The notes: generated by a model not told the origin, from the sequence alone. A stretch of DNA of 64,000 nucleotides from an uncultured Bacilli bacterium (GCA_910584255.1 CAJTXV010000001.1:81318-145317); one strand, 5' to 3'. Positions 2,673 to 29,852 are shown, numbered from the stretch's first letter. Numbers and translations: made by a program.

Positions 2673-2687
2673 AGTACGTATTCCTTT

Positions 2688-3239: not shown

Positions 3240-3516
3240 ATAGTTAATTCCTCCTCTTTTTCTATTTCTTGTTCCTCTTCTTTTTCGTAATCAAAATCAT
3301 TTAAAAGTCTATCTCTCATATCCTCATTATAAATCGAATCATAGGCATCACTTATTTCAAATGCTTTATTTATAATATCGCTATTTAAATCTCCAACAGT
3401 TAATCCTTTAACATCATGAAGTAATATGCTACATAAAACTCTCGATCATACTTATCTTCTTGTAAATATTTCATGTGTCTTTCTATTGCTTCTCTATTCA
3501 TAATATTTCCCCCTTC

Positions 3517-4389: not shown

Positions 4390-4392
4390 TAT

Positions 4393-4689: not shown

Positions 4690-4690
4690 C

Positions 4691-5425: not shown

Positions 5426-5461
5426 ACTATCATCTCCTATTCATTATTGTTTTTAAAATTA

Positions 5462-5773: not shown

Positions 5774-5960
5774 CTTCTAAATCAAAGCATATATACTTTT
5801 CACAATAATCATTAAATATATTTAAAAAATGTTGTTTATTTTTATATCCACCAGACATAAATCCACCATTACTCTCATAATTAAAGTCAATCACTTTAAA
5901 AAATTTTTCTTCTAGATCAATTTCTATCTTAATTTCAAGTTTTTTCTTTTTCTTTCTCAT
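5745..5960 (-). CDS. Small hypothetical protein
   Basis: 71-aa ORF overlapping the HTH gene start. Confidence 0.3.
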   Translation of the reverse strand: MRKKKKKLEIKIEIDLEEKFFKVIDFNYESNGGFMSGGYKNKQHFLNIFNDYCEKYICFDLEDDESESEYE

Positions 5961-5969: not shown

Positions 5970-7655
5970 TTATTTTGTTTTATAATAATTACTCACTTTT
6001 TGTTTTTCATTTTTTGAAATAGCTTCAATATCTTCACCATTAGCTTTTCCTATTTCTTGATTATTTCTATCATATAGGACATACTCTTTGTCATCGACTA
6101 AATATACAATTCCTCTGTTATCAAAACTAATCCAAGCAACGCTATTTTTCGGAACATAAAAAAAGTATTCGCTATAAGGTATACGAATACAATACTTATC
6201 CTCTGTAGTTCTTTTTTCATCAATCATATTTTTACTAATTGAAACACTTTTGATATATCCTTTTTCAGTTTCTAAAGAAATGCCTCTTATTTTTTCTAAC
6301 TCACTAGCTTTATTTTTTAGATAAGTTAAATAAGCATATTTTTGATTCATATCTATTTTCATCTTATTAGCTGTTGATATAATTTCTTCAACCTCTTCAG
6401 TTGTTTCTACATTTAATTCTTTTTTTAAATCTAAAAATGCTTGAACTTCATTAGGCAGTTCAGTATCAGCATGATAAATATCTTGCTGTTCTAAATATAA
6501 ATCATAATTATCCAAATATTTTAAATAAAGATTACACAAGGGAACTCTTAACTGAAGTGTCTCATGTTCTGAAAGCAATGATTGATACTCTGTTTCTCTT
6601 GATTCTATATCATTTTTGATCTCTTGAAGTTGGATTTCTAAAGCATCATAATTATATATCTCATGATTATTTAAAAAATTAATTGTATCCACTAACTTAT
6701 GATACCTTCTTACTTCCATATATCTAGAATTATAATATTTAAAATATTCAGAGTTAGCATCTAAGTCCTCCATTGTATATAAAACAGAATGTTTTGATAA
6801 TTTTGCAAGTTGATCATAAATATTTAAAATAACACTATCTCTTACATTTAATTCATATTTTTCAAAAAAGATATTTTTCTGATTTTTTCTTTTATCTTTA
6901 AAAAATTTTTTTAAGGAATCTTCACTATATTCATCTCCTAAAGTTTTCATAGTAACAAATCTATCTTTACCGTAAGGACGAATTTTAATATTTTTCCCTA
7001 ATTTTATTTGATAACCTTCAAATGAAAGTTGCTCTAATAGTTCATCAAAAGAAAAGCATCTTTCTTTCAATGATTCTAACATTTCTATTATTTGAGTTTT
7101 CCAATTTTTATTAGCCATAGCATATAAATATTTATTTTTGTGATAATGTCCAATTTTAGGAGCATCTTGGATAATCTTCAGTCCATGTTGCAATGATATT
7201 TCATCACTAGCATCTCTTAAACCATAAAGTCCTTCAATTGGATTAGATAGTCTGTCTTCTAGTTTTCTTCCTTTCAAATTTAATGATGATAAGCAGAAAT
7301 GATTATGAATATGCAATCTATCGACATGCGTACACACTACTACCTGAAAGTCTGGATATAACTTTTTAACAAGTTCAACCCCAATTTGGTGGGCTTCTTC
7401 TGGTGTTAGATTCTTTTCCTTAGGATCAAATGACTGATAACCATGATAACATGTTCGACTATCATTATTTTCCTCAACATGAAATTTTTGACTATTTACT
7501 TGCATTTCATAAGCAGCAAACTCTGAAGAACAATTTATTCCTGTTACTAATGTTCCTCCTTTTGTTTTTTTGGGATTTTTAATATAGTCAATACAGTCTA
7601 CTCGTCCTTGAATTCCGTGTACACTCCATCTAGCTGTTGTTGGCAGAAATATCAC
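5970..7655 (-). CDS. Conjugative relaxase, MobA/VirD2 (MOB-P type, PF03432-like)
   Basis: Histidine triad VVCTHVDRLHIHNHFCLSS (HxDxxHxHxH-like relaxase motif III); 561 aa; directly downstream of a MobC-like gene. Confidence 0.7.
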   Translation of the reverse strand: MIFLPTTARWSVHGIQGRVDCIDYIKNPKKTKGGTLVTGINCSSEFAAYEMQVNSQKFHVEENNDSRTCYHGYQSFDPKEKNLTPEEAHQIGVELVKKLYPDFQVVVCTHVDRLHIHNHFCLSSLNLKGRKLEDRLSNPIEGLYGLRDASDEISLQHGLKIIQDAPKIGHYHKNKYLYAMANKNWKTQIIEMLESLKERCFSFDELLEQLSFEGYQIKLGKNIKIRPYGKDRFVTMKTLGDEYSEDSLKKFFKDKRKNQKNIFFEKYELNVRDSVILNIYDQLAKLSKHSVLYTMEDLDANSEYFKYYNSRYMEVRRYHKLVDTINFLNNHEIYNYDALEIQLQEIKNDIESRETEYQSLLSEHETLQLRVPLCNLYLKYLDNYDLYLEQQDIYHADTELPNEVQAFLDLKKELNVETTEEVEEIISTANKMKIDMNQKYAYLTYLKNKASELEKIRGISLETEKGYIKSVSISKNMIDEKRTTEDKYCIRIPYSEYFFYVPKNSVAWISFDNRGIVYLVDDKEYVLYDRNNQEIGKANGEDIEAISKNEKQKVSNYYKTK

Positions 7656-8427
7656 CGACCAATCCTATATCCTTTATAGTTATACTATAAACTTTTTGTT
7701 TTTCTTTTATAGCATACTTTTGAGCATCTTCATAACGTTCAAATGGCATTACAATACCAAACTTTAAATTTTTATCCCAACTATAAAAACAAAGAAGCAA
7801 ATTCTTTTTCATAGCGACATCTCGAAGTAAATTTACAAGTCCTATAAAATCTTCTGCTTTCATATTATTTATTTCAAAATCATATTCATACATTTTCAAG
7901 TAAACTACATATCCATATTTTTGTACTGGAGACTTTAAATTAGAAGGTCTTAATATAGTTATCTTTTTATCATATTCTGTTACTCTTTTTAAAAGTTTAA
8001 CATCTGTTCTATGGTTATCTATCATTTTTGCACGATGTTGAATCTTCTTTTCAGTATTAACAGATAAGTTAGTAATTACTGTTTTTTGAAGAGAATCTAC
8101 TTCTTCAATTATTTTTTTATTCTGATCTATAATCTTTTTTATATTTTGAGATGATATACCAGGATTCATCAGCAACTTTTTTTGTTCATTTAATAGTTCT
8201 CTTAAAACTTCAATACATTTACTAACTGCCTCACACACTTCATTTTTTCCTACTACATCCTCAACCCAAATATTTTCATATATAGCAGCAGCTCGAATAT
8301 ACTCAGCAAGACAATCACCATAGCCATAACTTATTGCTTTCTCAGTTATTAATTTTCGTTCATCTTCATTAAGCATCAAATTTATTTTCTGTCTTCTTAA
8401 CTTTTTATCACTATTTCTTTTCTGCAT
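7630..8427 (-). CDS. MobC-like relaxosome accessory protein
   Basis: N-terminal RRQKINLMLNEDERKLITEKAISYGYGDCLAEYIRAAAIYE resembles the MobC/RHH mobilisation-protein motif; overlaps the relaxase start. Confidence 0.55.
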   Translation of the reverse strand: MQKRNSDKKLRRQKINLMLNEDERKLITEKAISYGYGDCLAEYIRAAAIYENIWVEDVVGKNEVCEAVSKCIEVLRELLNEQKKLLMNPGISSQNIKKIIDQNKKIIEEVDSLQKTVITNLSVNTEKKIQHRAKMIDNHRTDVKLLKRVTEYDKKITILRPSNLKSPVQKYGYVVYLKMYEYDFEINNMKAEDFIGLVNLLRDVAMKKNLLLCFYSWDKNLKFGIVMPFERYEDAQKYAIKEKQKVYSITIKDIGLVGDISANNS

Positions 8428-8962
8428 AAGCTTTCCTCTTCTGCTTCTGCAATTCTAATTTGTAAAGTTCTATTTTTTCTAAATAAGACGAACGAAAATA
8501 ATTTTTACTTAACCATTGAACTCCTTCTGCTGGTATTAATATTCTGCCATCTTCTAATGTAATGGTATCAATATTATTTTTTCTCATACGAGTTAGTCCA
8601 CTATATAACGTATTAATACATTTTTCAAAATGATTACATGCTTCTCTGACTGTCATAGCTTGATGATCAAATTCTTTATGAGGTAAATTCAATTCATTTT
8701 CTAATCTAACTATTTGTTTTTCAAAGAAATTAATTTCTGCATCTAAATAAAATACTTTTCTATTATAATAAACATCTTTTAACCACTCAATAAATTCTAA
8801 TTTCAAATATACAACTTCTTCTCCGTTATTAGCTAATTTCTCATTAACCCATTTTTCCAGAGGATGTCTCTTTTGCATTTTTTTAATTGCTACATCTAAT
8901 TGCTTTTCTGTGATAGAAAAATTTTGTTGTACTCTCCATTTTTCTTGAGCTTTAAATTCCAT
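8411..8962 (-). CDS. Hypothetical protein, first gene of the mob operon
   Basis: 183-aa ORF overlapping the mobC-like start; position suggests an oriT-binding accessory role. Confidence 0.4.
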   Translation of the reverse strand: MEFKAQEKWRVQQNFSITEKQLDVAIKKMQKRHPLEKWVNEKLANNGEEVVYLKLEFIEWLKDVYYNRKVFYLDAEINFFEKQIVRLENELNLPHKEFDHQAMTVREACNHFEKCINTLYSGLTRMRKNNIDTITLEDGRILIPAEGVQWLSKNYFRSSYLEKIELYKLELQKQKRKAYAEKK

Positions 8963-9030
8963 TTTTTCTCCTTTCTCACTCTAATAGAAAATACCCCTTT
9001 CAGAGTATAGAAATTTAATCTATCAAGCAT

Positions 9031-9075
9031 GGTGTTTACACACCCTAAAGCTTGTTAGGGAAAACCCTAAAACCC
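9031..9075 (-). promoter_or_regulatory. Candidate oriT/nic region upstream of the mob operon
   Basis: Intergenic 8963-9076 contains IR GGTGTTTACACACC (9031-9044) overlapping IR CCCTAAAGCTTGTTAGGG (9043-9060), then AAAACCCTAAAACCC. Confidence 0.35.
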
Positions 9076-9076
9076 T

Positions 9077-9475
9077 TTATGTAGTCTCCGACAGTTTAGA
9101 ATTTTTTTTAAAAATTTTATTGAATTTTTTTTGCTTCTTTTGATATAAATTTTCTTGAATTCTTATATCTAAAAATTTAATAATTTCTTTAGATGTACCA
9201 TTTTGGTACTCTAAATCTTCAATATATTCATTAATGATTTTTTTATGAATATCACAAAAATAATTATTAGAAATTTCTCTTTTTAATTGATTTATTAATT
9301 TATTATTGTATTTTATTTTATCAATTACTGCTTCTCTATTACTACTAATTTGATCTTCTTTTAGCGATAAATAATAATGTTTTATAAAAGGATTAAGTGG
9401 TGAATTATCCAATTCTCTTATTAACTTTTTAATTATTCTTTTAGTGTTTTTTCTTTCTATTTTATTAGTAGTCAT
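9077..9475 (-). CDS. Hypothetical protein
   Basis: 132-aa K/E-rich ORF. Confidence 0.4.
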   Translation of the reverse strand: MTTNKIERKNTKRIIKKLIRELDNSPLNPFIKHYYLSLKEDQISSNREAVIDKIKYNNKLINQLKREISNNYFCDIHKKIINEYIEDLEYQNGTSKEIIKFLDIRIQENLYQKKQKKFNKIFKKNSKLSETT

Positions 9476-10365
9476 TTTGTTATATCCTCCTCTATTTCTT
9501 CTTCTAAATTTGATAATAAGTTAGATTTTATATTATCAATAAAATCATCAAAATCTTTTTCTATATAGTTTTTAGAATCTTGATTTTTGCATTCAACATC
9601 AAATATTCGTTCATTAATTATATCGTATTTAAACCTAAAATCATCAATGCTACTTTCGGAAGAGGTATTATATTCTTCTTCTGTATTGTAATAATAAACA
9701 TAACCTTCTCCTATAACAATGCTTCCATCTTTTATACATGATGGATAGTCAAAGCCAATTTTAATTTTATATGGTTTGTTAGATATTTCTAATGGTAAAC
9801 TAAGACATCTTTCATTATTATACCAAGAAAAAAAGTCATCCATTGAAATAGATTTTACTTGCTCTAATGTAATATTATTGTTCTCATATATTTCTCTAGC
9901 AAGAGATTGTCCAACCTCAATTGGATTTAAAAATTCACTGTAAAATTCTGAACATTTATCTATTAGTGTTATTAAATCTTCATCTGATATAAGTGGTTTT
10001 TCATTTGTAATCCCAATAAAATATAAATATTCATATATATTGCTATGCAAATCAAAAGATTCAAAATGTTCTTTAATAGATCTAAAATTACTTATCCTTG
10101 TGTCCAATATTTTATAGTTTAAAATACGTAATAATTCTTTTTTTGTATCTTCTGTAGTAAAAAGATATGGGAATCCATATTCATAATTATTATCTACTTG
10201 TACATTTTTTCCAAAATATATTTGATAGTAGTCTTTAGTATCCTCTTTAGAAATAGTCTTTAATAATTCCCATTTGTTTTCTGAAAAGAATTTATCTATT
10301 TTTTCTATATAATTTATATCTTTAAACTCCTCTAAAATATTTACTTTTCTATATTCCTGTGTCAT
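9472..10365 (-). CDS. Hypothetical protein; tail ...EEEIEEDITK
   Basis: 297-aa ORF. Confidence 0.45.
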   Translation of the reverse strand: MTQEYRKVNILEEFKDINYIEKIDKFFSENKWELLKTISKEDTKDYYQIYFGKNVQVDNNYEYGFPYLFTTEDTKKELLRILNYKILDTRISNFRSIKEHFESFDLHSNIYEYLYFIGITNEKPLISDEDLITLIDKCSEFYSEFLNPIEVGQSLAREIYENNNITLEQVKSISMDDFFSWYNNERCLSLPLEISNKPYKIKIGFDYPSCIKDGSIVIGEGYVYYYNTEEEYNTSSESSIDDFRFKYDIINERIFDVECKNQDSKNYIEKDFDDFIDNIKSNLLSNLEEEIEEDITK

Positions 10366-10395
10366 TATGAAATCTCCATTCTGGTTTTAAAATTT

Positions 10396-11805
10396 TTACT
10401 CATATTCTATTTCATCTATTTCTTCTTCCAACTCTTCATGAGGAAGAACGTCTTGCAAACCCTTTAAGATAAGCAGTTCATGAGATAAATCTTTAACAAG
10501 ATATTTATTTTCATCAATTAAATATATATCCGAATTATTTGCTTTTAATGTTTGCATCATATCAAGTAATACATCCATATCCCTAGTTATTCTAGTTAAT
10601 GATAATGTAAATATATCTTTAATTTTTTTATTTTTTACATCATCCAAAAGAACTCCTAAAGCTGCATTAGAGCTTATTTTACTTGGTGAATGATCAATAT
10701 AAATTTTTATTAATTCAGAATCTCTAGATACTTTACTATTGAGAGCTTTCAAACAATAATCCTCATTATTTTTAAAATATAATTCTGGATTATCCTTAAA
10801 ACCACTTAATCTACAATAGATTGCATACTTTTTTAAGTCCTTATTTTGATCCCAAATTAATTCTTTTGTTTCTTCAATAGCATCAGTTAATGTCGATGAA
10901 TCTAAAATATTGTCATCATATTCTAATTCACCTTCTTTGTTATAAAATTCCAATTCAAACCAATTATTATTTTCAATATTTAATTCATATTTTTCATGTT
11001 CATATTCTAGTATTGAATTTAATTCATAATCATTTTTAATGAATGGAATCATTACATTTTTAAACAATCCATCTTGATTTTTATCAATTACTGTTGCGAT
11101 TATATCTCCTTTTTTTACTTTATTTCCATCTTTATCAATATAATCCTCTTTGGCAATTAGATTACACCTAACTTGCCCCCTAGCAACAATTTTATATTCA
11201 CCAGAGGATGTTTTAATACTTGCAGCTTCCCCACCATACCAAAATACATTATCATGTTCAAAATCGCTATTCCCATAATCATTAACTTCAATATTTAATA
11301 TCTCTTTTATACTTCCAACTTTTTTCTTAAATCGTCTGCCATCTTTTACACTTGAACTTACTATAGAAGTAGTATTATTTATCATTTTTTTAACATATTT
11401 ACCATGTCTTATACTTTTTAACAGACTATTTTGTATATGATTGGTAAAAGATAATTTTAAATTAACATATTCTTTAGTTAATGGTTCTTTAGAATATCCA
11501 AAAATAACTTCACAATTATTATTAATTAATTCGTTACAAACTTCTGCAATAGTATTCATATCACGTGCAAAAATATTAATATCATCTACATATATTTTTG
11601 TTATATTTTTGGACTTAACTTCATTTAATAACAAATTTAATTCCTTTTTAGATTTAAATGATGGAGAAGATATATCTTTAAAGATCAATGCTTTTTCAGC
11701 TGTATCTTTATCATAATCTAAATGGATTCTATTTCTACAAAAATCAATTTGATCCTTTATATTTCTTTCTGTTCCACCATGTGCATATATTGCTATTTTA
11801 CTCAT
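10396..11805 (-). CDS. Resolvase-like protein with tandem, apparently degenerate serine-recombinase catalytic-like domains
   Basis: N-terminal IAIYAHGGTE (cf. YARVST; catalytic Ser replaced) ...KIYVDDINIFARDMNTIAEV; second domain IYIDHSPSK...LSLTRITRDMDVLLDMMQTL; tail ...EEEIDEIEYE. Confidence 0.45.
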   Translation of the reverse strand: MSKIAIYAHGGTERNIKDQIDFCRNRIHLDYDKDTAEKALIFKDISSPSFKSKKELNLLLNEVKSKNITKIYVDDINIFARDMNTIAEVCNELINNNCEVIFGYSKEPLTKEYVNLKLSFTNHIQNSLLKSIRHGKYVKKMINNTTSIVSSSVKDGRRFKKKVGSIKEILNIEVNDYGNSDFEHDNVFWYGGEAASIKTSSGEYKIVARGQVRCNLIAKEDYIDKDGNKVKKGDIIATVIDKNQDGLFKNVMIPFIKNDYELNSILEYEHEKYELNIENNNWFELEFYNKEGELEYDDNILDSSTLTDAIEETKELIWDQNKDLKKYAIYCRLSGFKDNPELYFKNNEDYCLKALNSKVSRDSELIKIYIDHSPSKISSNAALGVLLDDVKNKKIKDIFTLSLTRITRDMDVLLDMMQTLKANNSDIYLIDENKYLVKDLSHELLILKGLQDVLPHEELEEEIDEIEYE

Positions 11806-12019
11806 TGTTGTTACCCTGGATTTTTACATCCAAATCTTGTTGAAGTTGATATATCTTTTCTTGCTGTTTCTTATAATCATACAACACTTTTAATTGTTTA
11901 TCGTATCCTGCTATTACACCATTTATTGCTTTAATTTTTTCTAATTCCTTATTCTTTAATACTTCCAAACGTTCAATTTTCTTCTCTAATTGTTTATTCA
12001 ATGTGTTTTCTCCTTTCAT
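11798..12019 (-). CDS. Small coiled-coil protein
   Basis: 73-aa ORF, heptad-like K/E/L pattern. Confidence 0.35.
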   Translation of the reverse strand: MKGENTLNKQLEKKIERLEVLKNKELEKIKAINGVIAGYDKQLKVLYDYKKQQEKIYQLQQDLDVKIQGNNNE

Positions 12020-12567
12020 TCAAACATTTCATCAACAATATCCAATTCATAGTTTTTTTCTGCTTTATCAAGTATTTTTTTATCTAAAATAATTCCAATG
12101 TTTTTAGATATATCTTTATCTTCTTTTAACAATAATCCTTGCCATATCCCATTTAAATGATTAATCCCATTTAGAAATTTAATACCTGTTCCTCCTGCTT
12201 CTTTCCAATCTAATAAATTTTTTGTATAATCATCAATTAAATAATCGTTTGAAGTTATTTTGTTGGGAATATATTTGTATTTTATTTCACCATAAGGAAC
12301 AAATATTCTTTTATTGATAGGCAGTGTAGGTAAATATTTATCTAGCCATTTTTTCTTTTCTTCTAAAGCATAATTACTATCAATCAAAAAAGAAGAAAGA
12401 ATATAAATATCTTTCCCCTCTTGGATTAATTTTTTAGTTTCTTCCAGCAAATGTGGATTTGGTTTTAGTGATTCATAATATCCTTTTTGATATAATTCAT
12501 CATTGGATTTAACATTTTTCCATTCAGCTAAAGTTCCATCCATATCAATAAAAATTCTCATTTGCAT
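12016..12567 (-). CDS. HAD-superfamily 5'(3')-deoxyribonucleotidase-like protein
   Basis: IFIDMDGTLAEW (DxDGT HAD motif I); size and layout resemble the NT5C/YorS family. Confidence 0.6.
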   Translation of the reverse strand: MQMRIFIDMDGTLAEWKNVKSNDELYQKGYYESLKPNPHLLEETKKLIQEGKDIYILSSFLIDSNYALEEKKKWLDKYLPTLPINKRIFVPYGEIKYKYIPNKITSNDYLIDDYTKNLLDWKEAGGTGIKFLNGINHLNGIWQGLLLKEDKDISKNIGIILDKKILDKAEKNYELDIVDEMFE

Positions 12568-12573
12568 ATTAAA

Positions 12574-12969
12574 TTATCTATCCATATCAAGATCAAAATC
12601 ATCATGAGAAATTTCTGCTTTTTCATTATTTTGAAGTTGCCTTTGGATTTCTTTTTTGCTATGAGAAAGAAAATTCACATCCTTAATAACCAAATCTGTC
12701 TCTCTAATTTTTTCACCATTTTTCTCATAACTATTCACTTGAACTTTAGCATTTACTAATACTAAATCTCCCACTAGAAAATGTTCTAGCTTTTCTGCCT
12801 TATTATTCCATGCTGTGCAATCAATAAAATCTGATTCATAAACTCCATCTTTGTTTTGATAATCTCTAGGAACTGCCACCATAAAATTTGAAACTCTTTT
12901 ACCAGATTGAGTCTCTTTTACTTCAGGAACTTCAACAACTCTTCCAACAAGTAAAACTTGATTTAACAT
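12574..12969 (-). CDS. ssb: Single-stranded DNA-binding protein (SSB, OB fold) with a non-canonical C-terminal tail
   Basis: MLNQVLLVGRVVEVPEVKETQSGKRVSNFMVAVPRDYQNKDGVYESDFIDCTAWNNKAEKL...LVLVNAKVQ matches the SSB consensus; tail ends DDFDLDMDR, not DDDIPF. Confidence 0.8.
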   Translation of the reverse strand: MLNQVLLVGRVVEVPEVKETQSGKRVSNFMVAVPRDYQNKDGVYESDFIDCTAWNNKAEKLEHFLVGDLVLVNAKVQVNSYEKNGEKIRETDLVIKDVNFLSHSKKEIQRQLQNNEKAEISHDDFDLDMDR

Positions 12970-12988
12970 GAATTCATCTCTCCTTTTT

Positions 12989-13360
12989 CTATTTTTCTAA
13001 TTCAAAATCTTCTTCTAATGGCTTTACATCTTTATCAAATAAATTACTATTCTTATAAAAAGAAGCTAGTACATCAACAGTTAAAGGTTCTTGACCATAC
13101 CAATTTACAGATTCTTCTTTTGTATAGCCAAAAGTCATTCCTTTCCCTACTTGATACTCAAAAATAATACATTCTGGATTATGATTATTGATTATGGATA
13201 AGCGTTGCCAATCTGAAAACTCTCTATATTTTTTTAGTAATTTACCTAACCCAAGATTATCTAAAAAATCTCTAAATTTTGTAAATTCTTGCTCATTTCT
13301 AATCATCATAGTATTTAACCCTGCAAAAAAATCTAACCATTTAGTTTCTTCGGTTTTCAA
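12989..13360 (-). CDS. Hypothetical protein; tail ...EEDFELEK
   Basis: 123-aa ORF. Confidence 0.4.
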   Translation of the reverse strand: MKTEETKWLDFFAGLNTMMIRNEQEFTKFRDFLDNLGLGKLLKKYREFSDWQRLSIINNHNPECIIFEYQVGKGMTFGYTKEESVNWYGQEPLTVDVLASFYKNSNLFDKDVKPLEEDFELEK

Positions 13361-13400
13361 ATATATCCTCCTTTAATATCTAAAATGAATTAATATAAGT

Positions 13401-14447
13401 TCACATCTCCATTTCAATATCATCTTGTTCCATTTCTTTTTCTTGTGAGACAAAATCTTTATGATATAATTCTTTTTTTCCATAAGTGATTGATGTGATA
13501 TGAGAAAATAAAAAATCAACAGTCCATCTACCATGGTCATTTTCTGCATCATTTTCCTTTATAAAATCACTTACTTTTTCATAACCAACTCCATAACTTC
13601 CACTTTTTATTTCATCATTTAGAAGATCACGCTTAAACCTATCATATTCATATTTAAAAGTTAAATCTTTATTGCCATAATGAATAGTGATATTTAATGT
13701 TTTTGCATCAATATCTTTTATTGCAGAATATAGTGATTTATTAATATAAACATTTTCAAAAGCATTATCTTCATTCTTTTTTATTTTATTTAGATAGTCT
13801 ATTTTATCGTAATATAGCAATAATTCTAATCCAATTCCTTCTTTATTTTCTTGTTTTTCTAAAATAATATTTGAACATTTTTCTATAGTCTCTTTTGGAT
13901 TATTTAAGTATTCAACATAAACATCACTCCACGCATATTCACTTGAATTAGAATAACTATTAGTAAGTGAATAACCTCTTTGAAATTCTATTATAGTGTC
14001 ATCCTTCTCAATAAAAAGTTCTCTAACCTCCTTTTTATAATGTTCTATACTCCAATGCTCTTTATGATTATATTTTTCAATCGCACAATCTTTTAAGGCA
14101 TCTTCATTATTAAAAGCATACTCTTTCAAGTATGCTTCAATATCTTTAGTAATTTTTTCTGATAAATTATTAAATGAATCTGTTCTTATCAAATCATTAT
14201 CCTCTAAAATTCTATTGATTGTATATGAAGGATTATATATACAATGTTCTTTTACATCCAAGTACCCTGAAACTTCATATTTTTCTTGCATTAAATGTCC
14301 ATTAAAACTTTTTATATATATAATTTGAAATCTGTCATCATATTTTTCTTTATGAATTCTAATTGTTTTAGGATAACTGTCTGAATTATCAAAAACATAA
14401 TCATTTATTTGATCATTTAATAAGTATTTTATTAGTTCTTCTTTCAA
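13401..14447 (-). CDS. Hypothetical protein, paralog of 14672..15694
   Basis: Shared blocks HKEKYDDRF.IIY...QEKYEVSGY.D.K.HC.Y.P; ...GLELLL..DK..YL; NITI.YG.K..FKY.YD..KRDLLN; HITSITYGKKELY.KD. Confidence 0.5.
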   Translation of the reverse strand: MKEELIKYLLNDQINDYVFDNSDSYPKTIRIHKEKYDDRFQIIYIKSFNGHLMQEKYEVSGYLDVKEHCIYNPSYTINRILEDNDLIRTDSFNNLSEKITKDIEAYLKEYAFNNEDALKDCAIEKYNHKEHWSIEHYKKEVRELFIEKDDTIIEFQRGYSLTNSYSNSSEYAWSDVYVEYLNNPKETIEKCSNIILEKQENKEGIGLELLLYYDKIDYLNKIKKNEDNAFENVYINKSLYSAIKDIDAKTLNITIHYGNKDLTFKYEYDRFKRDLLNDEIKSGSYGVGYEKVSDFIKENDAENDHGRWTVDFLFSHITSITYGKKELYHKDFVSQEKEMEQDDIEMEM

Positions 14448-14478
14448 ATTATTAGTTCCTTTCTACTTAATTATTTTC

Positions 14479-14661
14479 CTAATTTATTTCATTAATTTGC
14501 TTTTCTCTTAAACTTTTTAACTCATTAGATAATTTAATGATTTCATCTATATATTTATCTAATTCATAACCATTGCCAACATTTTTCTTCCAAAAAAAAT
14601 AGTCTTTACATCTTTTATTAATCTTACATAATATCTTATAAAATCTTTCACTATACTCCAT
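14479..14661 (-). CDS. Small hypothetical protein
   Basis: 60-aa ORF between the two paralogs. Confidence 0.3.
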   Translation of the reverse strand: MEYSERFYKILCKINKRCKDYFFWKKNVGNGYELDKYIDEIIKLSNELKSLREKQINEIN

Positions 14662-14671
14662 AAATATTTAT

Positions 14672-15694
14672 CTACCTTTCTATTTCTAAATCTTCTTCAA
14701 CTTCCTTTTCAGTTTCTATATCTTTTGAATACAACTCATTTTTACCATGCGTAATTTTAGTTATATGAGAGAAATCAAAAGCAAGATGACCATATCTATC
14801 ATGGTTATCTTCTGGAGCATTTTCTCTTATAAAATCTGATACTACATCATAGCCACTACTATAAAGATGACTATTTTTTGTATTACCATTTAATAAATCT
14901 CTTTTTAAAGAATCATAATCATATTTAAAAGAGAAACTTTTTCCATTATATTCAATGGTAATGTTTAAATTATTAGCAGCAACGGATTTGATTGAATTTA
15001 ATATATTTTTATTTATATATAAATCACGAAAAGAATCGTCCTTATTTAATAAGATTTCTTGCAAATAATTTTTTTTATCATCAAGCAGTAATAATTCTAA
15101 TCCAAAATCTTCTTCTTTTTGATCAAGCAAATCTTTTGAAAGTTCTTCAACTATTTTATTAGAATCATTCAAATATGAAATTAATACACTATAATAATCT
15201 TTTGCATGAGTAAATTCACTTGAGGAAAAAGCAATTGAAAAATCTATATGTGGATTATCTTCACAGAGAAAAATTCCTCTTACCTCTTTTTTATAACTAT
15301 TAAATCTGTAATCATCTTTATCATTATATTTTTTTTGTGCAATTTTTTTTAATTTTTCTGCATTGTCTAAACAATATTTATTTAAATATTCATTTAAATC
15401 TAAAGTCATTTTTTTATCTATTTCACTAAAATGACTTGTTCGTATCACACTCTCTTCAGGTAATTTTTCTTCCATCCACCTATCTGGTTCATATAAGCAA
15501 TGGTCTTTGGTATCATAGTATCCACTTACTTCATATTTTTCTTGTTTAAGTGAATCAGTATATTTTTTTGAATAAATTATATCGAATCTATCATCATATT
15601 TTTCTTTGTGAATTTTTAATTGATATGCTGAACTTTCAAATACTTCATCATTATAATTACCGTTTAATAAAAATTTTTCTATTTTACTATTCAT
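14672..15694 (-). CDS. Hypothetical protein, paralog of 13401..14447; tail ...EVEEDLEIER
   Basis: See the paralog alignment blocks at 13401..14447. Confidence 0.5.
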   Translation of the reverse strand: MNSKIEKFLLNGNYNDEVFESSAYQLKIHKEKYDDRFDIIYSKKYTDSLKQEKYEVSGYYDTKDHCLYEPDRWMEEKLPEESVIRTSHFSEIDKKMTLDLNEYLNKYCLDNAEKLKKIAQKKYNDKDDYRFNSYKKEVRGIFLCEDNPHIDFSIAFSSSEFTHAKDYYSVLISYLNDSNKIVEELSKDLLDQKEEDFGLELLLLDDKKNYLQEILLNKDDSFRDLYINKNILNSIKSVAANNLNITIEYNGKSFSFKYDYDSLKRDLLNGNTKNSHLYSSGYDVVSDFIRENAPEDNHDRYGHLAFDFSHITKITHGKNELYSKDIETEKEVEEDLEIER

Positions 15695-15706
15695 ATATTC
15701 TCCTTT

Positions 15707-15940
15707 TCATTTTTCTATTTCTTCCATTTCATAATTTGATAATACTAATTCCATTCCTTTTTCCTGAAAGTAATCTAACATAAGTTCATATTGTTCTTCT
15801 ACAGAATCACCTTTATCTGCTTCAAAACTTCCTATTTTAATATCCTTATGAAATGTTTTTCTTCCAATATCACGCAAATTTTCTATTATTTCAAAAAACT
15901 TTTTTGCATCAGAAAATTCTTTTTTATAATTTTTATTCAC
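15707..15940 (-). CDS. Small hypothetical protein; tail ...EMEEIEK
   Basis: 77-aa ORF; AAAGGAGA RBS for the downstream gene overlaps its stop. Confidence 0.4.
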   Translation of the reverse strand: MNKNYKKEFSDAKKFFEIIENLRDIGRKTFHKDIKIGSFEADKGDSVEEQYELMLDYFQEKGMELVLSNYEMEEIEK

Positions 15941-15952
15941 TTAAAACACCTT

Positions 15953-16534
15953 CTAAAAATCTAAATCAGGTTCTTCTTCGTATTCATCATAGTTATTATC
16001 CTGTTGTTGATTATAGGTATTATCTCCTTGATTCTTAATGGCATTTAAATCTCTTGTTTCATTATTTTCAATAAAATTAGAGACTTCCATAGCTGTTGCT
16101 TGAATATTAGGATCTGTTATTGCTTTTTTATATTCATTTGAAATATCTTCACTAAAAAAGCGAAAATTCTTTCTCTCGTTTGCTTGTTTTTCTTCCATAT
16201 AAGCATAAGTATGGTTTAAAGCAATTTGATCAGAAATTCTTAAATCTTTAGGATTCAAATTATTATCAATACACAATAAAGCTTTATAGAAAAGCTCTTT
16301 GTTATCCTTCATTAATGAATTTAATTCTGTATACATAATTGTAAGAAATTTTTGATTTACTGCTTGATTAATCACTCTTTCAACTTCTAAACCAAGTTCT
16401 TTTTCAAAATGACTAGCTGGTACTTTTGTAGGTTGTTGCGTTTGAGGATTAATATATTTATAAGTCATATCCTCTAATGTTTTTGACATTTCTTTCTGCT
16501 TTTGTTGAATAAGATCATCATATACTGTTCTCAT
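15953..16534 (-). CDS. Hypothetical Q/N-rich protein with an SSB-tail-like C-terminus (...EEEPDLDF)
   Basis: 193-aa ORF; acidic tip ending in Phe. Confidence 0.4.
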   Translation of the reverse strand: MRTVYDDLIQQKQKEMSKTLEDMTYKYINPQTQQPTKVPASHFEKELGLEVERVINQAVNQKFLTIMYTELNSLMKDNKELFYKALLCIDNNLNPKDLRISDQIALNHTYAYMEEKQANERKNFRFFSEDISNEYKKAITDPNIQATAMEVSNFIENNETRDLNAIKNQGDNTYNQQQDNNYDEYEEEPDLDF

Positions 16535-16535
16535 A

Positions 16536-16892
16536 TTATTTCTCCCTTTCTATTTCATCATTTGATTTGTTACTATCTTCTTTTAAAGAAGACACATACA
16601 TTGGTACTTTTGATTGGATATTTCTTGATTCTTCAAACTCAATTAGTTCAAGTAAGTTTTCTGCTTTATCCCCTTTCAGAATGTGATATGGTGTTGAAAA
16701 AAGAAGACTTTTTTTATGTCTATTAAGAATCTCTTTTAATATCACATCATCAGTAGCATTCTCTGTTTCAATCACTAATACTCCACCATCTATTAAATGT
16801 CCTTTACAATCATAAAAACTATAATCTGCTTCATTTCCATCATTAAAAATATGAAGGATGTTATTTTCGTTACTAATAATTAATGTATCCAT
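16536..16892 (-). CDS. Hypothetical protein; tail ...DEIEREK
   Basis: 118-aa ORF. Confidence 0.4.
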   Translation of the reverse strand: MDTLIISNENNILHIFNDGNEADYSFYDCKGHLIDGGVLVIETENATDDVILKEILNRHKKSLLFSTPYHILKGDKAENLLELIEFEESRNIQSKVPMYVSSLKEDSNKSNDEIEREK

Positions 16893-16910
16893 ATTCTCCT
16901 TTCATTGCAT

Positions 16911-16934
16911 AAAAAAAATGCTTCAAAAAGCATT
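16911..16934 (-). terminator. Rho-independent terminator after 16956..17402
   Basis: Minus sense: stem AATGCTT, loop, AAGCATT, then TTTTTTTT. Confidence 0.5.
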
Positions 16935-16955
16935 AATTCATTTAAATTATACATA

Positions 16956-17402
16956 TTAGTCCTTATCTATTTCATCATACTCATCTTCGATTGAAATATC
17001 TATTTCCTCTTCCAATTCTTCCGAAAGTTTAGAAGACATTTCTTCAAAAGCATACCATGCCATTAGATTCTGATTATTATCCTCTAAAACTAAAGGATCT
17101 TCTTTATCAAATTTATCCCCAAATAATTCCTCCAAAGATAATCCTGTACCATCTTTCAATTCTGATAACATTTGGTTAATTTCTTCTTTGTAATCGTTAT
17201 AAAATTTTGTTGTGTCAGAATAATATATTAATGAACTTATCATTCCAGAAATACATCCATGTTGTGCTAAATCTGAAAATTCCTGCTGCAATTCTTCGTA
17301 AGAATCCAATTCTCTATCTATATAGTAATCAATGACTGCATTTTTTAACTTATTATGACCTTTTAATGATTCTAATGTTTCTTTTAGCTTTTCCTTATTC
17401 AT
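16956..17402 (-). CDS. Hypothetical acidic protein
   Basis: 148-aa ORF; tail ...DEYDEIDKD. Confidence 0.4.
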   Translation of the reverse strand: MNKEKLKETLESLKGHNKLKNAVIDYYIDRELDSYEELQQEFSDLAQHGCISGMISSLIYYSDTTKFYNDYKEEINQMLSELKDGTGLSLEELFGDKFDKEDPLVLEDNNQNLMAWYAFEEMSSKLSEELEEEIDISIEDEYDEIDKD

Positions 17403-17486
17403 AAATAGTTAGTCTCCTTTCGTATAACGCTTAAATATATTTTAACATAAAACACAATGAAATATATACTCTAAACTATAATTCAC

Positions 17487-18062
17487 TTACTTTTCTATCT
17501 CCTCAACTTCTTGTTCTATTTCTTGTGTTTTATAATACTCATATAAATCCTTACAAACATCATTAAAACATCTAGTAATAGAGTGTATTTCTATTACATC
17601 ATTAGAAAAAATATTTGAATCAATTTCTTCTTTTAAATCTAAGGTTATTGATTCATCCACTATTTTATTATACACTTCTTCACTATCAGTATCTAAACCC
17701 TGTTTAGAATAAAATTTAGTAAGTTCATCTTCAGCACGTTCTTCTAAAATTTCTTGTAAACCATCACTAACTTTAATGTATTTCATAATTTCATCTTCCT
17801 TAGAAGAAAAAATTTTAATAAGATTTTCAACAATATCACCCTTTAATAATCGCCAAGGAGCATAATCTTTTTCATACATTTCATTTATTGCTTTGAAAAT
17901 ACTTAATGCTATTTCTTGTTCAACTTTTGATTGGAATTCAGGTTTTTCCTTTATAAATCCTATAAATTGTTCTTCTGTATTTTTAAAGTGCTTTTCGTAT
18001 TTTAATATTGCTTTATAATAATCTTTAGCTAACATTTCTACCGATTTCATTTCTATTATCAC
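17487..18062 (-). CDS. Hypothetical protein; tail ...EVEEIEK
   Basis: 191-aa ORF. Confidence 0.4.
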   Translation of the reverse strand: MIIEMKSVEMLAKDYYKAILKYEKHFKNTEEQFIGFIKEKPEFQSKVEQEIALSIFKAINEMYEKDYAPWRLLKGDIVENLIKIFSSKEDEIMKYIKVSDGLQEILEERAEDELTKFYSKQGLDTDSEEVYNKIVDESITLDLKEEIDSNIFSNDVIEIHSITRCFNDVCKDLYEYYKTQEIEQEVEEIEK

Positions 18063-18421
18063 CTTTTCAAAAAATCATCCATAAAAAAAGCAATCACACA
18101 ATAGTTATCATTCTCACTTACTGGTTTTGCCTTTTTATCTTTTTGAAATTCATTAATAAAATTTAAAGTATCTCTATCAATATCTCCTTTTTTGCATGGT
18201 AGATAGCCACAAATCTTTAATAGTTTAATAAAATCAATATGCAACACGTTACACATATTAATAAGTGTTACAATATTATAGTTTTCTCTTTCACAATTTT
18301 CAATTCTAGATAACTCACTATGACTAATACCTACTGCTCTTGCTAATTCTCTTTTACTATATCCATAAAAAGATCTATACCATTTAAAAATTTCTGCCAT
18401 AAGACAATAATTATTTCTCAT
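18059..18421 (-). CDS. XRE-family HTH regulator
   Basis: YSKRELARAVGISHSELSRIENCERENYNIVTLINMCNVLHIDFIKLL. Confidence 0.6.
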   Translation of the reverse strand: MRNNYCLMAEIFKWYRSFYGYSKRELARAVGISHSELSRIENCERENYNIVTLINMCNVLHIDFIKLLKICGYLPCKKGDIDRDTLNFINEFQKDKKAKPVSENDNYCVIAFFMDDFLKR

Positions 18422-18467
18422 ACCAATTTTATCCTTTCTTCTAGTTCATAATTGTGAACATTAAAAT

Positions 18468-18683
18468 TTATTTTTCTATTTCTGGTTCTTCTAATTCAAT
18501 GCTTTTATCATTAGCAAAAAGTTTATTAACATCAATTTCTAAATCAAAATCATATTGCATATTAGATGTAATATAAGACTTTATTTGATCTTCTAAATCT
18601 GCTGGAGAATTTAGTTCTTCTTCCCTATTTTGAAATTTATCTTTATTTTTATTATATAATTCCTTTAAATATTCTTTATTCAT
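18468..18683 (-). CDS. Small hypothetical protein; tail ...ELEEPEIEK
   Basis: 71-aa ORF; final 9 aa identical to 18983..19384. Confidence 0.4.
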   Translation of the reverse strand: MNKEYLKELYNKNKDKFQNREEELNSPADLEDQIKSYITSNMQYDFDLEIDVNKLFANDKSIELEEPEIEK

Positions 18684-18970
18684 GCTAATCTTCCTGTTTT
18701 AAAGTAATTTAAATACAATGCCTTAATTTCATTATAGAAATTAGAACAATCAGCAAAAGTCATATTTTCTAAATAATCAAACGTAAATAATAAATCTTGG
18801 CATCTCCATAACAATTTGAAATCATCATCAGAAAGATGAAAATTTCTTAGATCTGCATATCCATCATAAGTAGAATAATTTTTAATATCACTATAAAAAT
18901 TAATTTTCATTTGTTCATTAAATTTTTTTACTGCTTCATCGTATTCTTCTTCTGTAAAAATTTCTTTCAT
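18680..18970 (-). CDS. Hypothetical protein, partial paralog of 18983..19384
   Basis: NYSTYDGYADLRNFHLSDDDFKLLWRCQDLLF versus NYNSYSGFHDLRDYKLSEQEFKDLWITQDFLYY. Confidence 0.4.
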   Translation of the reverse strand: MKEIFTEEEYDEAVKKFNEQMKINFYSDIKNYSTYDGYADLRNFHLSDDDFKLLWRCQDLLFTFDYLENMTFADCSNFYNEIKALYLNYFKTGRLA

Positions 18971-18982
18971 TTCTTCTCCTTT

Positions 18983-19384
18983 TCATTTTTCTATTTCTGG
19001 TTCTTCTAATTCAATTTTTTTATCAATTTTTTCATGTTTAAATAATTCTTGCTGATAATCTGCTGACAATTCTTTTAAACTTTCAAATAATTCAGGCATA
19101 CTGTTTTTAATTATTTCTTTATTTGACTCACAGTAATATAAAAAATCCTGGGTAATCCATAGATCTTTAAATTCTTGTTCGCTTAACTTATAGTCTCTTA
19201 AATCATGAAAACCACTATATGAATTATAATTATCAATATTTTTAAATTTCTTTTGTAATTCATTTGTCATCTGATTCAATTTGTTTTTATTTTTGTTGTC
19301 TATTTCACAACTAACTCGGCAATACATTTTAACTTTTCCTTTTGAAAAATCAGATAATAATTTTCCCATTTTCTCTCCTTTCAA
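18983..19384 (-). CDS. Hypothetical protein; tail ...ELEEPEIEK
   Basis: 133-aa ORF. Confidence 0.4.
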   Translation of the reverse strand: MKGEKMGKLLSDFSKGKVKMYCRVSCEIDNKNKNKLNQMTNELQKKFKNIDNYNSYSGFHDLRDYKLSEQEFKDLWITQDFLYYCESNKEIIKNSMPELFESLKELSADYQQELFKHEKIDKKIELEEPEIEK

Positions 19385-29850: not shown

Positions 29851-29852
29851 TA

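Follow-up and report, generated by a model that had tools for sequence, protein, structure and literature searches.

A conserved 19-ORF block beside the candidate oriT of an ICE from an uncultured Bacilli bacterium, and the acidic C-terminal tail common to many of its products

RESULTS

Gene layout of the element

The window is the whole stretch of DNA that was analyzed, 64,000 nucleotides from an uncultured Bacilli bacterium (GCA_910584255.1 CAJTXV010000001.1:81318-145317). The element that it carries, an ICE from uncultured gut bacteria of the low-GC Bacilli, is laid out much like pCF10. An earlier note on this DNA had taken it for a conjugative element, and Pfam searches of the window confirmed this reading with a T4CP, VirB4, PrgI, a CHAP hydrolase, LPXTG adhesins, a sortase, and a PcfG-like relaxase. 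The components expected of the pCF10/PcfG type (MOBP, Gram-positive T4SS) are present, namely, PrgI, VirB4, the CHAP hydrolase, a VirD4 coupling protein, and the LPXTG adhesins. The genes are arranged in the order adhesins, T4SS, a block of 19 ORFs, candidate oriT, accessory genes, PcfG-like relaxase, further accessory genes, sortase, and large serine recombinase; the serine recombinase and chromosomal genes were found on the source contig beyond the window start. The main features outside the block are the following.

2127..5960, minus strand: genes downstream of the relaxase, five with the C-terminal tail described below (2127-2672, 2688-3239, 4393-4689, 4691-5425 [SUFU-domain protein], and 5745-5960)
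5970..8962, minus strand: mob operon with three tail-less products, of 183 aa, 265 aa, and 561 aa (the PcfG-like relaxase)
about 9016..9100, no strand assigned: candidate oriT, a conserved noncoding block, proposed from its conservation and its resemblance to the pCF10 oriT region
28642..34223, minus strand: further tail-bearing accessory ORFs (28642-29850, 32925-33803, and 33813-34223)
29853-32867, minus strand: DnaG-type primase (Pfam), tail-less
34342..35373, minus strand: orphan N6/N4 DNA methyltransferase, tail NTEDYEIER, with a homologue inside the island of relative L012
36302-36916: HD_5 (HD-GYP-type) protein (Pfam)

The relaxase of the mob operon matched PF03432 (E = 1.8e-28) and, at the same length of 561 aa as PcfG, shared 35% identity with it across the HUH core, and the 265-aa mob protein gave a weak RHH/NikA-like match (E = 0.004). 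The arrangement is that of the PcfG type, with a PF03432 relaxase preceded by accessory genes and a candidate oriT with inverted repeats. The orphan MTase and the HD-GYP gene that had been noted further along are the N6_N4 methyltransferase and the HD_5 protein listed above; for the PAPS-reductase-like gene noted with them, no such domain was detected in 32925-33803 or 35366-36055.

Composition of the 19-ORF block

The block (9077-19384) sits between the type IV secretion genes and the conserved noncoding element. It consists of 19 co-oriented minus-strand ORFs, all pointing toward the candidate oriT, and is 96.4% coding with a largest gap of 84 nt. The earlier description of a single-strand array of about 10 kb was thus accurate, and its count of about 25 ORFs has to be lowered to 19, a number also reached by independent gene calling on the source contig. 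In the sense of transcription, the block lies directly upstream of a 114-nt noncoding stretch and then of an operon made up of two accessory genes plus the relaxase gene (PF03432), which is the adjacency to a candidate oriT and mob operon that had been claimed. The ORFs range from 60 to 469 aa (median, 132 aa), so that "small" describes many of them and not all, and the statement that nearly every ORF lacks a domain is too strong, as 5 of the 19 have a Pfam domain, DUF7222 included. Many of the products are very acidic (median pI, 4.9). All of the ORFs listed here are on the minus strand.

9077..9475, minus: 132-aa basic protein, pI 9.7, tail-less, variable among relatives, no family match
9472..10365, minus: 297-aa acidic protein in the slot of ArdC-like genes in relatives, no Pfam or PDB match
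10396..11805, minus: resolvase-domain protein, 469 aa, two resolvase catalytic-type domains, tail EEEIDEIEYE
11798..12019, minus: 73-aa basic coiled-coil-like protein, tail-less, the best-conserved island ORF (72 to 80% identity in relatives)
12016..12567, minus: NT5C/HAD 5'-deoxynucleotidase-like protein, tail ELDIVDEMFE
12574..12969, minus: SSB (PF00436, E = 9e-22), tail DDFDLDMDR
12989..13360, minus: 123-aa ORF, no family assigned, tail EEDFELEK
13401..14447, minus: 348-aa protein of a lineage-restricted family, paralog of 14672-15694, tail EQDDIEMEM
14479..14661, minus: 60-aa ORF, not conserved in relatives
14672..15694, minus: 340-aa paralog (AF2 model), tail VEEDLEIER
15707..15940, minus: 77-aa ORF, variable, tail YEMEEIEK
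15953..16534, minus: 193-aa conserved ORF, no family assigned, tail EEEPDLDF
16536..16892, minus: 118-aa conserved ORF, no family assigned, tail NDEIEREK
16956..17402, minus: DUF7222 protein, 148 aa, pI 4.1, net charge -26
17487..18062, minus: 191-aa acidic ORF, no family assigned, tail EQEVEEIEK
18059..18421, minus: XRE-type HTH regulator (profile match), tail-less
18468..18683, minus: 71-aa acidic ORF, tail IELEEPEIEK
18680..18970, minus: 96-aa ORF, tail-less, paralog of 18983-19384 (31% identity)
18983..19384, minus: 133-aa ORF, paralog of 18680-18970, tail IELEEPEIEK

Several genes named in the earlier note were recovered here, namely, ssb, the HAD dNMP nucleotidase (as the NT5C/HAD protein), the XRE regulator, and tandem paralog pairs, of which there are two (348 and 340 aa at 44% identity, and 96 and 133 aa at 31%). 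The label "pseudo-resolvase" suits the N-terminal copy of the catalytic-type domain in 10396-11805, which lacks the catalytic Ser (YAHGG), but not the C-terminal copy, which keeps both the Ser (YCRLS) and the SxxRxxR motif. No HTH, recombinase, or zinc-ribbon DNA-binding domain was found in this protein, and with Ser only in the second catalytic-type domain and a DNA-binding domain absent, we rejected it as a standard serine recombinase or resolvase. The C-terminal third of the 297-aa protein is homologous to a 110- to 113-aa ORF of relatives. Canonical SSB proteins end in ..D(I/L)PF, whereas the ICE SSB ends in DDFDLDMDR. An Rfam search found nothing, and there was no terminator-like site on the gene strand of the block, which is codirectional with the T4SS and mob genes.

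Candidate oriT and related loci

The noncoding element at 9016-9100 separates the island from the mob operon, with the island on the side opposite the relaxase, and its conservation and resemblance to pCF10 make it a candidate oriT. It contains two inverted repeats, IR1 (TTAGGG-tttt-CCCTAA, 9055-9070) and IR2 (CAAGC..GGTG-tgtaaa-CACC..GCTTG, 9024-9054), flanked by an invariant ATGCTTGATAGA on the mob side and a conserved AACTGTCGGAGACTA on the island side (about 9082-9096). Across 8 loci the noncoding stretch was 95 to 100% conserved, against only about 50 to 60% identity for the flanking proteins; IR1 of L012 carries a compensatory change, and the single-stranded DNA fold gave a z of -2.8. 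The most invariant segment beside an inverted repeat is CACC-ATGCTTG-A, on the sense strand and the relaxase side. It resembles pCF10 ..CCGCTTGCAA and likewise the MOBP nick core ATCCTG.

The block is syntenic in eight relatives, and comparison with L003-L008 and L012 showed it to be mostly conserved backbone rather than hypervariable cargo. ArdC-like genes (ArdcN plus MPTase) occupy the same slot in sister ICEs, and the slot of L012 additionally holds an orphan MTase and DpnD/PcfM, so that enrichment for anti-restriction genes (ArdC-like, MTase, DpnD-PcfM) is seen in relatives and not in this window. The NT5C domain is fused to ArdC-like domains in P0327 and to DpnD/PcfM in P0219 and P0329, and it is embedded in proteins of 250 to 2800 aa.

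Anti-defense families and predicted structures

The earlier note had proposed that the block carries anti-restriction, anti-CRISPR, and SOS inhibition cargo. None of the 19 ORFs matched a known anti-restriction, Acr, SOS inhibitor, or defense family in Pfam, PHROGs, NCBIfam, or PADLOC, and an ArdC homologue is absent from the window by Pfam and by tblastn with the L003 or L012 ArdC-like proteins. No ORF of the window is callable as an anti-defense gene yet. The fold comparison suggested in the same note also went against the proposal, with two confident models unlike ArdA, Ocr, KlcA, Acr, or any solved fold. The AF2 model of the 340-aa paralog (pLDDT 87.5) had no match among solved folds; it is beta rich at its ends and contains a long helical hairpin, and residues 327 to 340 form a disordered tail. 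The DUF7222 model is all-alpha (pLDDT 87), with no PDB match at E < 1 and no Pfam or PHROG match to ArdA or Ocr. We therefore did not assign DUF7222 to the ArdA/Ocr DNA mimics, a pI of 4.1 alone not being diagnostic. Homologues of DUF7222 occur in Herelleviridae and other Firmicutes phages, where the genes sit within a genome-end array of small ORFs.

A shared acidic-hydrophobic C-terminal tail

A conserved tail, with a consensus of roughly EE[DE]xE[IML][DE][KRIM], stands at the extreme C terminus of 12 of the 19 island proteins and 9 of 30 other ICE proteins (21 of 49 in the ICE), compared with 0 of 18 proteins beyond the ICE; the motif occurs in about 2% of internal 8-mers of the window. The relatives gave a similar picture, with tails in 62/97 island proteins, 13/27 post-relaxase proteins, 0/19 mob proteins, and 0/21 chromosomal proteins. 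The carriers are soluble accessory proteins only, none with a TM segment, and include ArdC-like proteins, DpnD/PcfM, RadC, and LPD1-type proteins, as well as accessory proteins of the more distant ICE L017. It is absent from the relaxosome and T4SS proteins, from the sortase, and from proteins encoded outside the ICE. Of the 120 closest homologues of the MTase, 106 have the tail, and in the 340-aa family it is kept at the end although the preceding linker varies. The 71-aa ORF at 18468-18683 and the ORF at 18983-19384 are identical in their last 10 residues (IELEEPEIEK) and in the 30 nt encoding them.

DISCUSSION

Proposed role of the block

The explanation that we favor as a whole, by a slight balance of probability, is an establishment module whose tails share a common receptor. 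The block would be a conserved accessory or "establishment" module of the ICE, corresponding to an expanded pcfD (ArdC-like)-pcfE slot of pCF10, and its products would serve protection and establishment of the incoming DNA rather than assembly of the mating channel. Because no anti-defense family was matched and the two models were uninformative, "establishment" is a term taken from context; the ArdC-like, MTase, and PcfM genes in the relatives' slot and the nucleotidase fusions fit a locus of this type. The transfer region of pCF10 from Enterococcus faecalis runs from the prgA-C adhesins and the prgD-L T4SS through the pcfC coupling protein, pcfD (ArdC-like), and pcfE to oriT, pcfF, and pcfG. 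The ICE shares with it the gene order, the single orientation, a homologous relaxase, and an oriT upstream of an accessory gene with comparable G/C-rich inverted repeats, and the position of PcfD just upstream of oriT is that of the ArdC-like genes in the relatives. In contrast, pCF10 is a pheromone plasmid, not an ICE with a serine recombinase, and its two-gene slot, with the ArdC-like gene that this copy lacks, stands against 19 mostly lineage-specific ORFs here.

Does the block enter the recipient first? We consider this somewhat likelier than its opposite. With a nick at CACC-ATGCTTG-A, on the sense strand and the relaxase side, the block would enter the recipient last, and the 19 ORFs, directed as they are toward oriT, would have their template on the transferred strand only if the plus strand were transferred. 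The earlier note read the block as being like a leading region. A classical leading region, in which the relaxase would nick the template (plus) strand at the island edge of oriT, is in our judgment doubtful. The orientation of all 19 ORFs toward the candidate oriT, the SSB in the block, the ArdC and MTase genes in the same slot of relatives, and the acidity of many products speak for it. The lagging region is the usual place of relaxase genes, and in leading regions the orientation of the SSB, MTase, and anti-defense genes allows them to be transcribed from the T-strand (PMC11541004). Furthermore, pLS20 has a unidirectional operon with oriT, two accessory genes, and relaxase, as here, and is nicked on the template strand, so that the genes upstream of oriT enter first (PMC5313138); pLS20 differs, though, in its relaxase family (MOBL) and in having no oriT sequence similarity and no reported tail motif. 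The leading regions that Samuel et al. (2024, PMC11541004) described for plasmids such as F and IncI are likewise oriT adjacent and away from the relaxase, with genes running toward oriT and an SSB among them, and their anti-restriction and MTase genes have counterparts in this ICE's relatives. However, the block differs from them in having no known anti-defense gene (0/19, with no ArdC in the window) and, with noncoding stretches of at most 84 nt, no room for a Frpo-type single-stranded DNA promoter, and in being conserved rather than mosaic and continuous with the T4SS operon. Also against a classical leading region are the DUF7222 and 340-aa models, unlike ArdA, Ocr, and Acr folds; the sequence conserved like a nick site, which is on the other strand; the occurrence of tail-bearing accessory genes past the relaxase as well; the AcrIIA9-family and PcfM genes of pCF10, which are encoded on the opposite strand and farther along than the relaxase; and the finding that MOBP2, MOBC, and MOBT elements show no leading-region enrichment (PMC11541004).

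Maintenance in the donor appears less probable still. The block would then help the excised ICE to be replicated and processed, through its SSB and nucleotidase, resolvase-like multimer resolution, and XRE control, the acidic tails being SSB-tail-like handles to a replisome or SSB hub and the adjacency to oriT incidental. This would suit a conserved backbone cotranscribed in one direction with the T4SS and mob genes and lacking a terminator-like site on the gene strand, an ICE with its own DnaG-type primase, and an SSB bearing the same kind of tail. On the other hand, the tail is also found on the MTase and on ArdC-like, DpnD/PcfM, RadC, and LPD1-type proteins, typical of recipient-directed or conflict functions and not of replication, and there are fusions of the nucleotidase domain with ArdC-like domains.

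Interpretation of the tail

Under the establishment module reading, the tail may act as a common signal for recruitment or translocation. The likeliest form of this would be a short linear motif recognized by one receptor that the element itself encodes, either the coupling protein or the relaxosome, with the tail-bearing set recruited, and possibly delivered, as a group. If so, the whole protein set would be handled by one common receptor. The tail could also serve another purpose, such as SSB/replisome hub binding or as a degron. That the tails are by-products of in-frame downstream Shine-Dalgarno sequences or of AT-rich low-complexity composition, in a plain run of ORFans, is largely refuted and very improbable: at gene overlaps and at spacings of up to about 5 nt, the SD (GAGGAG, AGGGAG) does fall in tail codons, and SD sequences explain the basic C termini of the unrelated ICE L010, but at least 12 tails are followed, after the stop codon, by gaps of 9 to 118 nt with a separate SD, tail codons are mostly GAA, residues vary (D/E, I/L/M/F) with the pattern kept across families, the internal frequency is only about 2%, and none of the 18 plus 21 chromosomal proteins or the 19 mob proteins from these genomes has one.

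A short, disordered, extreme C-terminal peptide on unrelated proteins of one system is a feature of translocation signals that the tail, disordered in the AF2 model of the 340-aa protein, fits. Known C-terminal T4SS signals are of this kind, the VirB/D4 tails being positively charged and Dot/Icm effectors having a Glu-rich E-block (cited in PMC8406263 and PMC8740702). The ICE tail is acidic like the E-block and unlike the basic VirB/D4 (type A) signal, and it differs from known T4SS signals in alternating strictly between acidic and hydrophobic residues up to the last residue. Unlike Dot/Icm, the system here is Gram positive (MPF_FATA-like), without DotM or IcmSW. None of 31 pCF10 proteins has such a tail, and knowledge of PcfC substrates thus does not carry over. 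There is precedent for protein delivery in that plasmid SSB and PsiB are moved into recipients by a T4SS (PMC8406263).

The domains of the block and its relatives also recur in a different architecture. The polyvalent proteins of conjugative elements and phages, reportedly described by Iyer et al. in 2017, have the same repertoire, with the N-terminal domain of ArdC together with zincin, MTase, and LPD domains and with a nucleotidase that is fused into proteins of up to 2800 aa. Such a protein is one giant polypeptide, whereas in the ICE the domains reside on individual small proteins that each end in a tail of their own.

Organization of the element

The window has a GC content of 25%, with nearly all of its genes on the minus strand, and Pfam scans showed that it holds a complete Gram-positive conjugation system.

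Genes of the element in transcription order along the minus strand
First: HTH protein, then two large surface proteins (Listeria-Bacteroides repeat; SpaA-type)
Next: HD_5 protein and N6/N4 methyltransferase (methyltransferase at 34342-35373)
Next: DnaG-type primase, VirD4 coupling protein (26709-28652), VirB6-like protein, PrgI, VirB4 and CHAP hydrolase
Between CHAP hydrolase and block: two Ig-like surface proteins
19384 down to 9077: block of 19 ORFs, then a 114-nt noncoding stretch
After the 114-nt stretch: 183-aa protein, 265-aa protein (weak NikA-like match) and 561-aa PF03432 relaxase
Downstream of the relaxase: HTH, SUFU-domain and other small proteins, then sortase

An identical region is present in the MAG GCA_949026485.1, where the sortase is followed by a large serine recombinase and then by chromosomal genes. 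It follows that the element is an ICE, and its host an uncultured low-GC "Bacilli/Tenericutes" gut bacterium.

A conserved block of ORFs and its relatives

The earlier note had described 9077-19384 as a leading-region-like anti-defense island, and its observation of the block was essentially right. The block consists of 19 nonoverlapping ORFs of 60 to 469 aa (median, 132), is 96.4% coding with a largest gap of 84 nt, and agrees with the independently made gene calls of the source contig. A further 59-aa ORF at 13373-13552, in another frame over the 3' end of the gene for a 348-aa protein, is probably spurious and is uncalled by the external predictions. Five members were identified, namely, an SSB, an NT5C/HAD nucleotidase, a Resolvase-domain protein, an XRE HTH protein, and a DUF7222 protein, and there are two paralog pairs, with 44% and 31% identity. 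The Resolvase-domain protein, of 469 aa, had been called a pseudo-resolvase, which holds for the first of its two resolvase catalytic-type domains, where the nucleophile serine is lost; the second keeps it and aligns with the catalytic domain of a conjugative-transposon recombinase (3g13). No DNA-binding domain follows the two domains.

The claim of anti-defense cargo was not supported for this copy: no match to a known family of anti-restriction, anti-CRISPR, SOS-inhibitor, or defense proteins was obtained for any of the 19 ORFs. PADLOC gave no credible defense match, and a megablast search of the island against phage and plasmid collections gave no match. Searches of PDB sequences with the relaxase and with six of the island proteins or profiles returned only the resolvase-domain match, and the plasmid relatives of the relaxase are distant (<37% identity). 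A PAPS-reductase-like gene, also claimed, was not recovered in domain searches of 32925-33803 and 35366-36055.

Two block proteins were modeled with confidence, and the proposed comparison with solved folds gave no match for either. The DUF7222 protein (148 aa; pI 4.1) has a predicted all-alpha model (pLDDT 87), and its sequence has DUF7222 matches in Enterococcus, Staphylococcus, and Bacillus phages. Herelleviridae phages carry the gene within a genome-end array of small ORFs, a placement that would be compatible with an early or host-takeover role. The second model, of a 340-aa protein paralogous to the 348-aa one (pLDDT 87.5), combines beta-rich ends with a long helical hairpin and a tail that is disordered. 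Among 5.8 billion proteins, this family forms only 31 clusters; two have a source name, in both cases "Bacilli" MAGs. A homolog also occurs in a locus of an unrelated ICE family (L010, 10001-11032; relaxase 30% identical), where its gene lies in the T4SS cluster, flanked by a weakly RadC-like ORF that follows TrbL and by a 162-aa ORF that precedes PrgI.

The block is syntenic in the related ICE loci L003 to L008 (relaxase 76 to 80% identical) and L012 (67%), with protein identities of 45 to 80%, and the variable members are few (9077-9475, 14479-14661, 15707-15940, DUF7222, and 17487-18062). The block is thus backbone and not random cargo. Limited gene turnover within it is seen in L005, where a 241-aa DUF1281_C (Api92-like ferredoxin-like) protein at 3850-4575 has no counterpart in the window.

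The relatives also indicate what this type of locus may do. In L003 and L012, the third or fourth gene from oriT encodes an ArdC-type protein that joins ArdcN to a zincin peptidase domain; length, position, and C-terminal tail, all conserved, make the same probable for L004 to L006. ArdC is absent from the window's copy; in pCF10, the ArdC-like PcfD occupies the corresponding position. The L012 block additionally holds an orphan methyltransferase, 55% identical to that at 34342-35373 in the window, and a DpnD/PcfM protein. Representative relatives of the NT5C-like domain number 2195, many of them embedded in proteins of 250 to 2800 aa, and its fusions include an ArdC-like module (P0327) and DpnD/PcfM (P0219 and P0329), which ties the nucleotidase to the same functional guild. 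Together, slot content and fusions fit this type of locus being an establishment or anti-restriction module. The earlier interpretation is partly supported. Where the block lies, how its genes point, the SSB, and what the relatives carry are as expected of a leading-region-like establishment module; however, this copy has no recognizable anti-defense gene, the block is conserved backbone, and the evidence on transfer order points both ways. If the block is such a module, its approximately 14 lineage-specific proteins, two with confident models of no known fold, would be candidate new anti-defense or host-takeover activities from poorly known gut bacteria.

The orphan N6/N4 methyltransferase shifts position among ICEs, lying past the primase in the window versus within the oriT-proximal block in L012 (7873-8916). 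The family it belongs to is highly abundant in metagenomes of the gut (1649 matches, and one cluster of 1019 member sequences).

A C-terminal tail shared by accessory proteins

The most interesting result, and a directly testable one, is a C-terminal tail shared by 12 of the 19 island proteins and nine other proteins of the ICE, among them the methyltransferase, the SUFU-domain protein, and ORFs flanking the primase. The tail is an acidic run closing with [DE]-hydrophobic-[DE]-[K/R/I/M], as in EEIEK, LEIER, DIEMEM, DEIEYE, and DLDMDR. A consensus drawn from 96 tails reads approximately E-E-[DE]-x-E-[IML]-[ED]-[KRIM], with a ..D-Y-[DE]-Y variant in related elements. Within the window it is absent from the relaxase, the relaxase accessory proteins, the T4SS components, and the sortase, as well as from all 18 proteins past 44.9 kb, and internal 8-mers match the motif at about 2%. 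The distribution in relatives is similar: 62 of 97 island proteins and 13 of 27 post-relaxase proteins have the tail, as opposed to 0 of 19 mob proteins and 0 of 21 chromosomal ones. No tail protein has a TM segment.

Among the closest 120 of the 1649 methyltransferase matches (at least 71% identical), 106 end in the tail, as ..DYEIER or ..EIDYEY. In L017, a more distant ICE, the accessory proteins (RadC, MTase, LPD1, and unknown ones) have the C termini ..EEIEI, ..IDYDY, ..DITDEMF, ..ELDIEI, and ..DYDYSY, and the T4SS proteins are without it. The L010 homolog of the 340-aa protein lacks the acidic tail, and pCF10 differs from this ICE in having it on none of 31 proteins. Two otherwise unrelated small ORFs carry an identical 10-residue tail, IELEEPEIEK, encoded by 30 identical nt (18468-18500 and 18983-19015), which hints at exchange of tail modules and suggests recent copying of the tail-coding segment.

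The tail is selected at the protein level. Its codons are mainly GAA, and a Shine-Dalgarno (SD) artefact was rejected, at least 12 tails being followed by gaps of 9 to 118 nt with a separate SD. In the 340-aa family the end is conserved as [DE][DE]Φ[DE]Φ E [RMKI] after a variable linker, and in the model this segment is disordered. An apparent second, basic class of tails in L010 was discarded, since those ends overlap the SD of the next gene.

Possible function of the tail

A short disordered C-terminal motif common to unrelated soluble accessory proteins, and absent from the machinery, implies one receptor. The coupling protein or relaxosome would be the most attractive candidate, and tail proteins would then be T4SS clients. 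Type A systems are known to use a basic signal, and an acidic one, the E-block, is that of Dot/Icm, so the tail would be a signal of a new type. We consider it possible, if rather unlikely, that it is a new type IV secretion or recruitment signal of Gram-positive ICEs that tags the soluble accessory suite (SSB, methyltransferase, nucleotidase, many ORFans, and, in relatives, ArdC) for export into the recipient via the mating channel. In F-like plasmids, SSB, PsiB, and partition proteins are moved into recipients in a relaxosome- and TraD-dependent manner (PMC8406263). Were delivery of the tail proteins to occur, establishment and anti-defense functions would arrive as protein, whatever the position of their genes relative to oriT.

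Alternatively, the tail may be a handle for an SSB or replisome hub, a reading favored by the SSB of the ICE, which bears the same tail instead of the canonical ..D(I/L)PF end; a degradation tag is a further alternative. Whichever applies, the tail is a simple sequence rule by which the accessory proteins can be recognized in gut Firmicutes ICEs of a widespread group. It therefore offers a direct, testable handle on the proteins that Gram-positive conjugation recruits or sends to recipients, and on the signal used.

Candidate oriT and direction of transfer

Two G/C-rich inverted repeats amid AT-rich sequence mark approximately 9016-9100, which as single-stranded DNA folds better than shuffled sequences (z = -2.8). 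The stretch is nearly invariant across eight related loci whose flanking proteins are just 50 to 60% identical or so, and one inverted repeat shows a compensatory change (TTAGGG/CCCTAA versus TTAGGA/TCCTAA in L012). The relaxase and pCF10 PcfG are homologs of equal length (561 aa) that share 35% identity in the HUH core, and the experimentally defined oriT interval of pCF10, between pcfE and pcfF, is arranged similarly, with ..TGTAGCGA..TTGGGGgaaCCCCAA.., next an inverted repeat, and after it ..GCTTG... From these sequence features, the stretch is most likely oriT.

As to polarity, we lean slightly toward the island DNA entering the recipient ahead of the rest. Relaxases usually lie in the lagging region (PMC11541004), and in pLS20, which has the same cassette of oriT, two accessory genes, and relaxase in a unidirectional operon, the template strand is nicked (PMC5313138). 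The genes immediately beside oriT and pointing at it encode SSB in the window and ArdC and MTase in relatives. The opposite reading, that the island enters last, draws on CACC-ATGCTTG-ATAGA, the most invariant sequence adjoining an inverted repeat, which lies on the sense strand at the relaxase side and resembles both CCGCTTGCAA of pCF10 and the MOBP nick core, ATCCTG; the equivalent 8 to 14 nt of the other strand are variable. Also on the side of late entry, the AcrIIA9-family and DpnD/PcfM genes of pCF10 sit past the relaxase on the opposite strand, and MOBP2, MOBC, and MOBT showed no leading-side enrichment in the work of Samuel et al. (PMC11541004).

Element boundaries and other features

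The second ICE junction was not found within the window, and the source contig ends near the window end. At the serine-recombinase end, just past the window start (locus L001, 18172-21219), the ICE abuts a 5'-truncated IleRS gene in which ICE-derived sequence takes the place of about 45 to 57 N-terminal residues. On the other side of the ICE (44950-48045) is a second IleRS, which is complete and only 33% identical. The ICE may have inserted into ileS, with the divergent copy, possibly ICE cargo, supplying the function. The 5' fragment of the disrupted gene, sought as a marker of the other ICE end, was not found within the window. The distal third (48358-64000) encodes a response regulator, a CAP-domain protein, a sigma-like factor, a MazF toxin with a small upstream ORF, a radical-SAM enzyme, a GNAT/YoaP protein, TetR and AraC/GyrI-like regulators, and an alpha/beta hydrolase, none with the tail; with the contig ending nearby, it could be chromosome or ICE cargo.

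Rfam searches at gathering thresholds gave no match within the window, no terminator was found on the gene strand, and a promoter scan was uninformative in DNA of this composition (127 sites versus 126 expected). An apparent 750-nt gap between VirB4 and the CHAP hydrolase (21713-22462), weighed as another possible oriT or an RNA locus, was rejected because it encodes the N-terminal portion of the CHAP protein. That protein is approximately 604 to 627 aa (604 aa in L012) and, preceded by a GAAAGGA SD, must start at ATA or CTG and not at ATG, GTG, or TTG. Genetic code 4 (TGA = Trp) had been considered on account of three in-frame TGA codons between the VirB4 and CHAP reading frames; it was rejected because TGA, like TAA and TAG, ends ORFs right after the tail motif and TGG is used normally. 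The tail-bearing SUFU-domain protein (4691-5425; PF05076, E = 5e-28), encoded just past the relaxase gene, is kept in several relatives.
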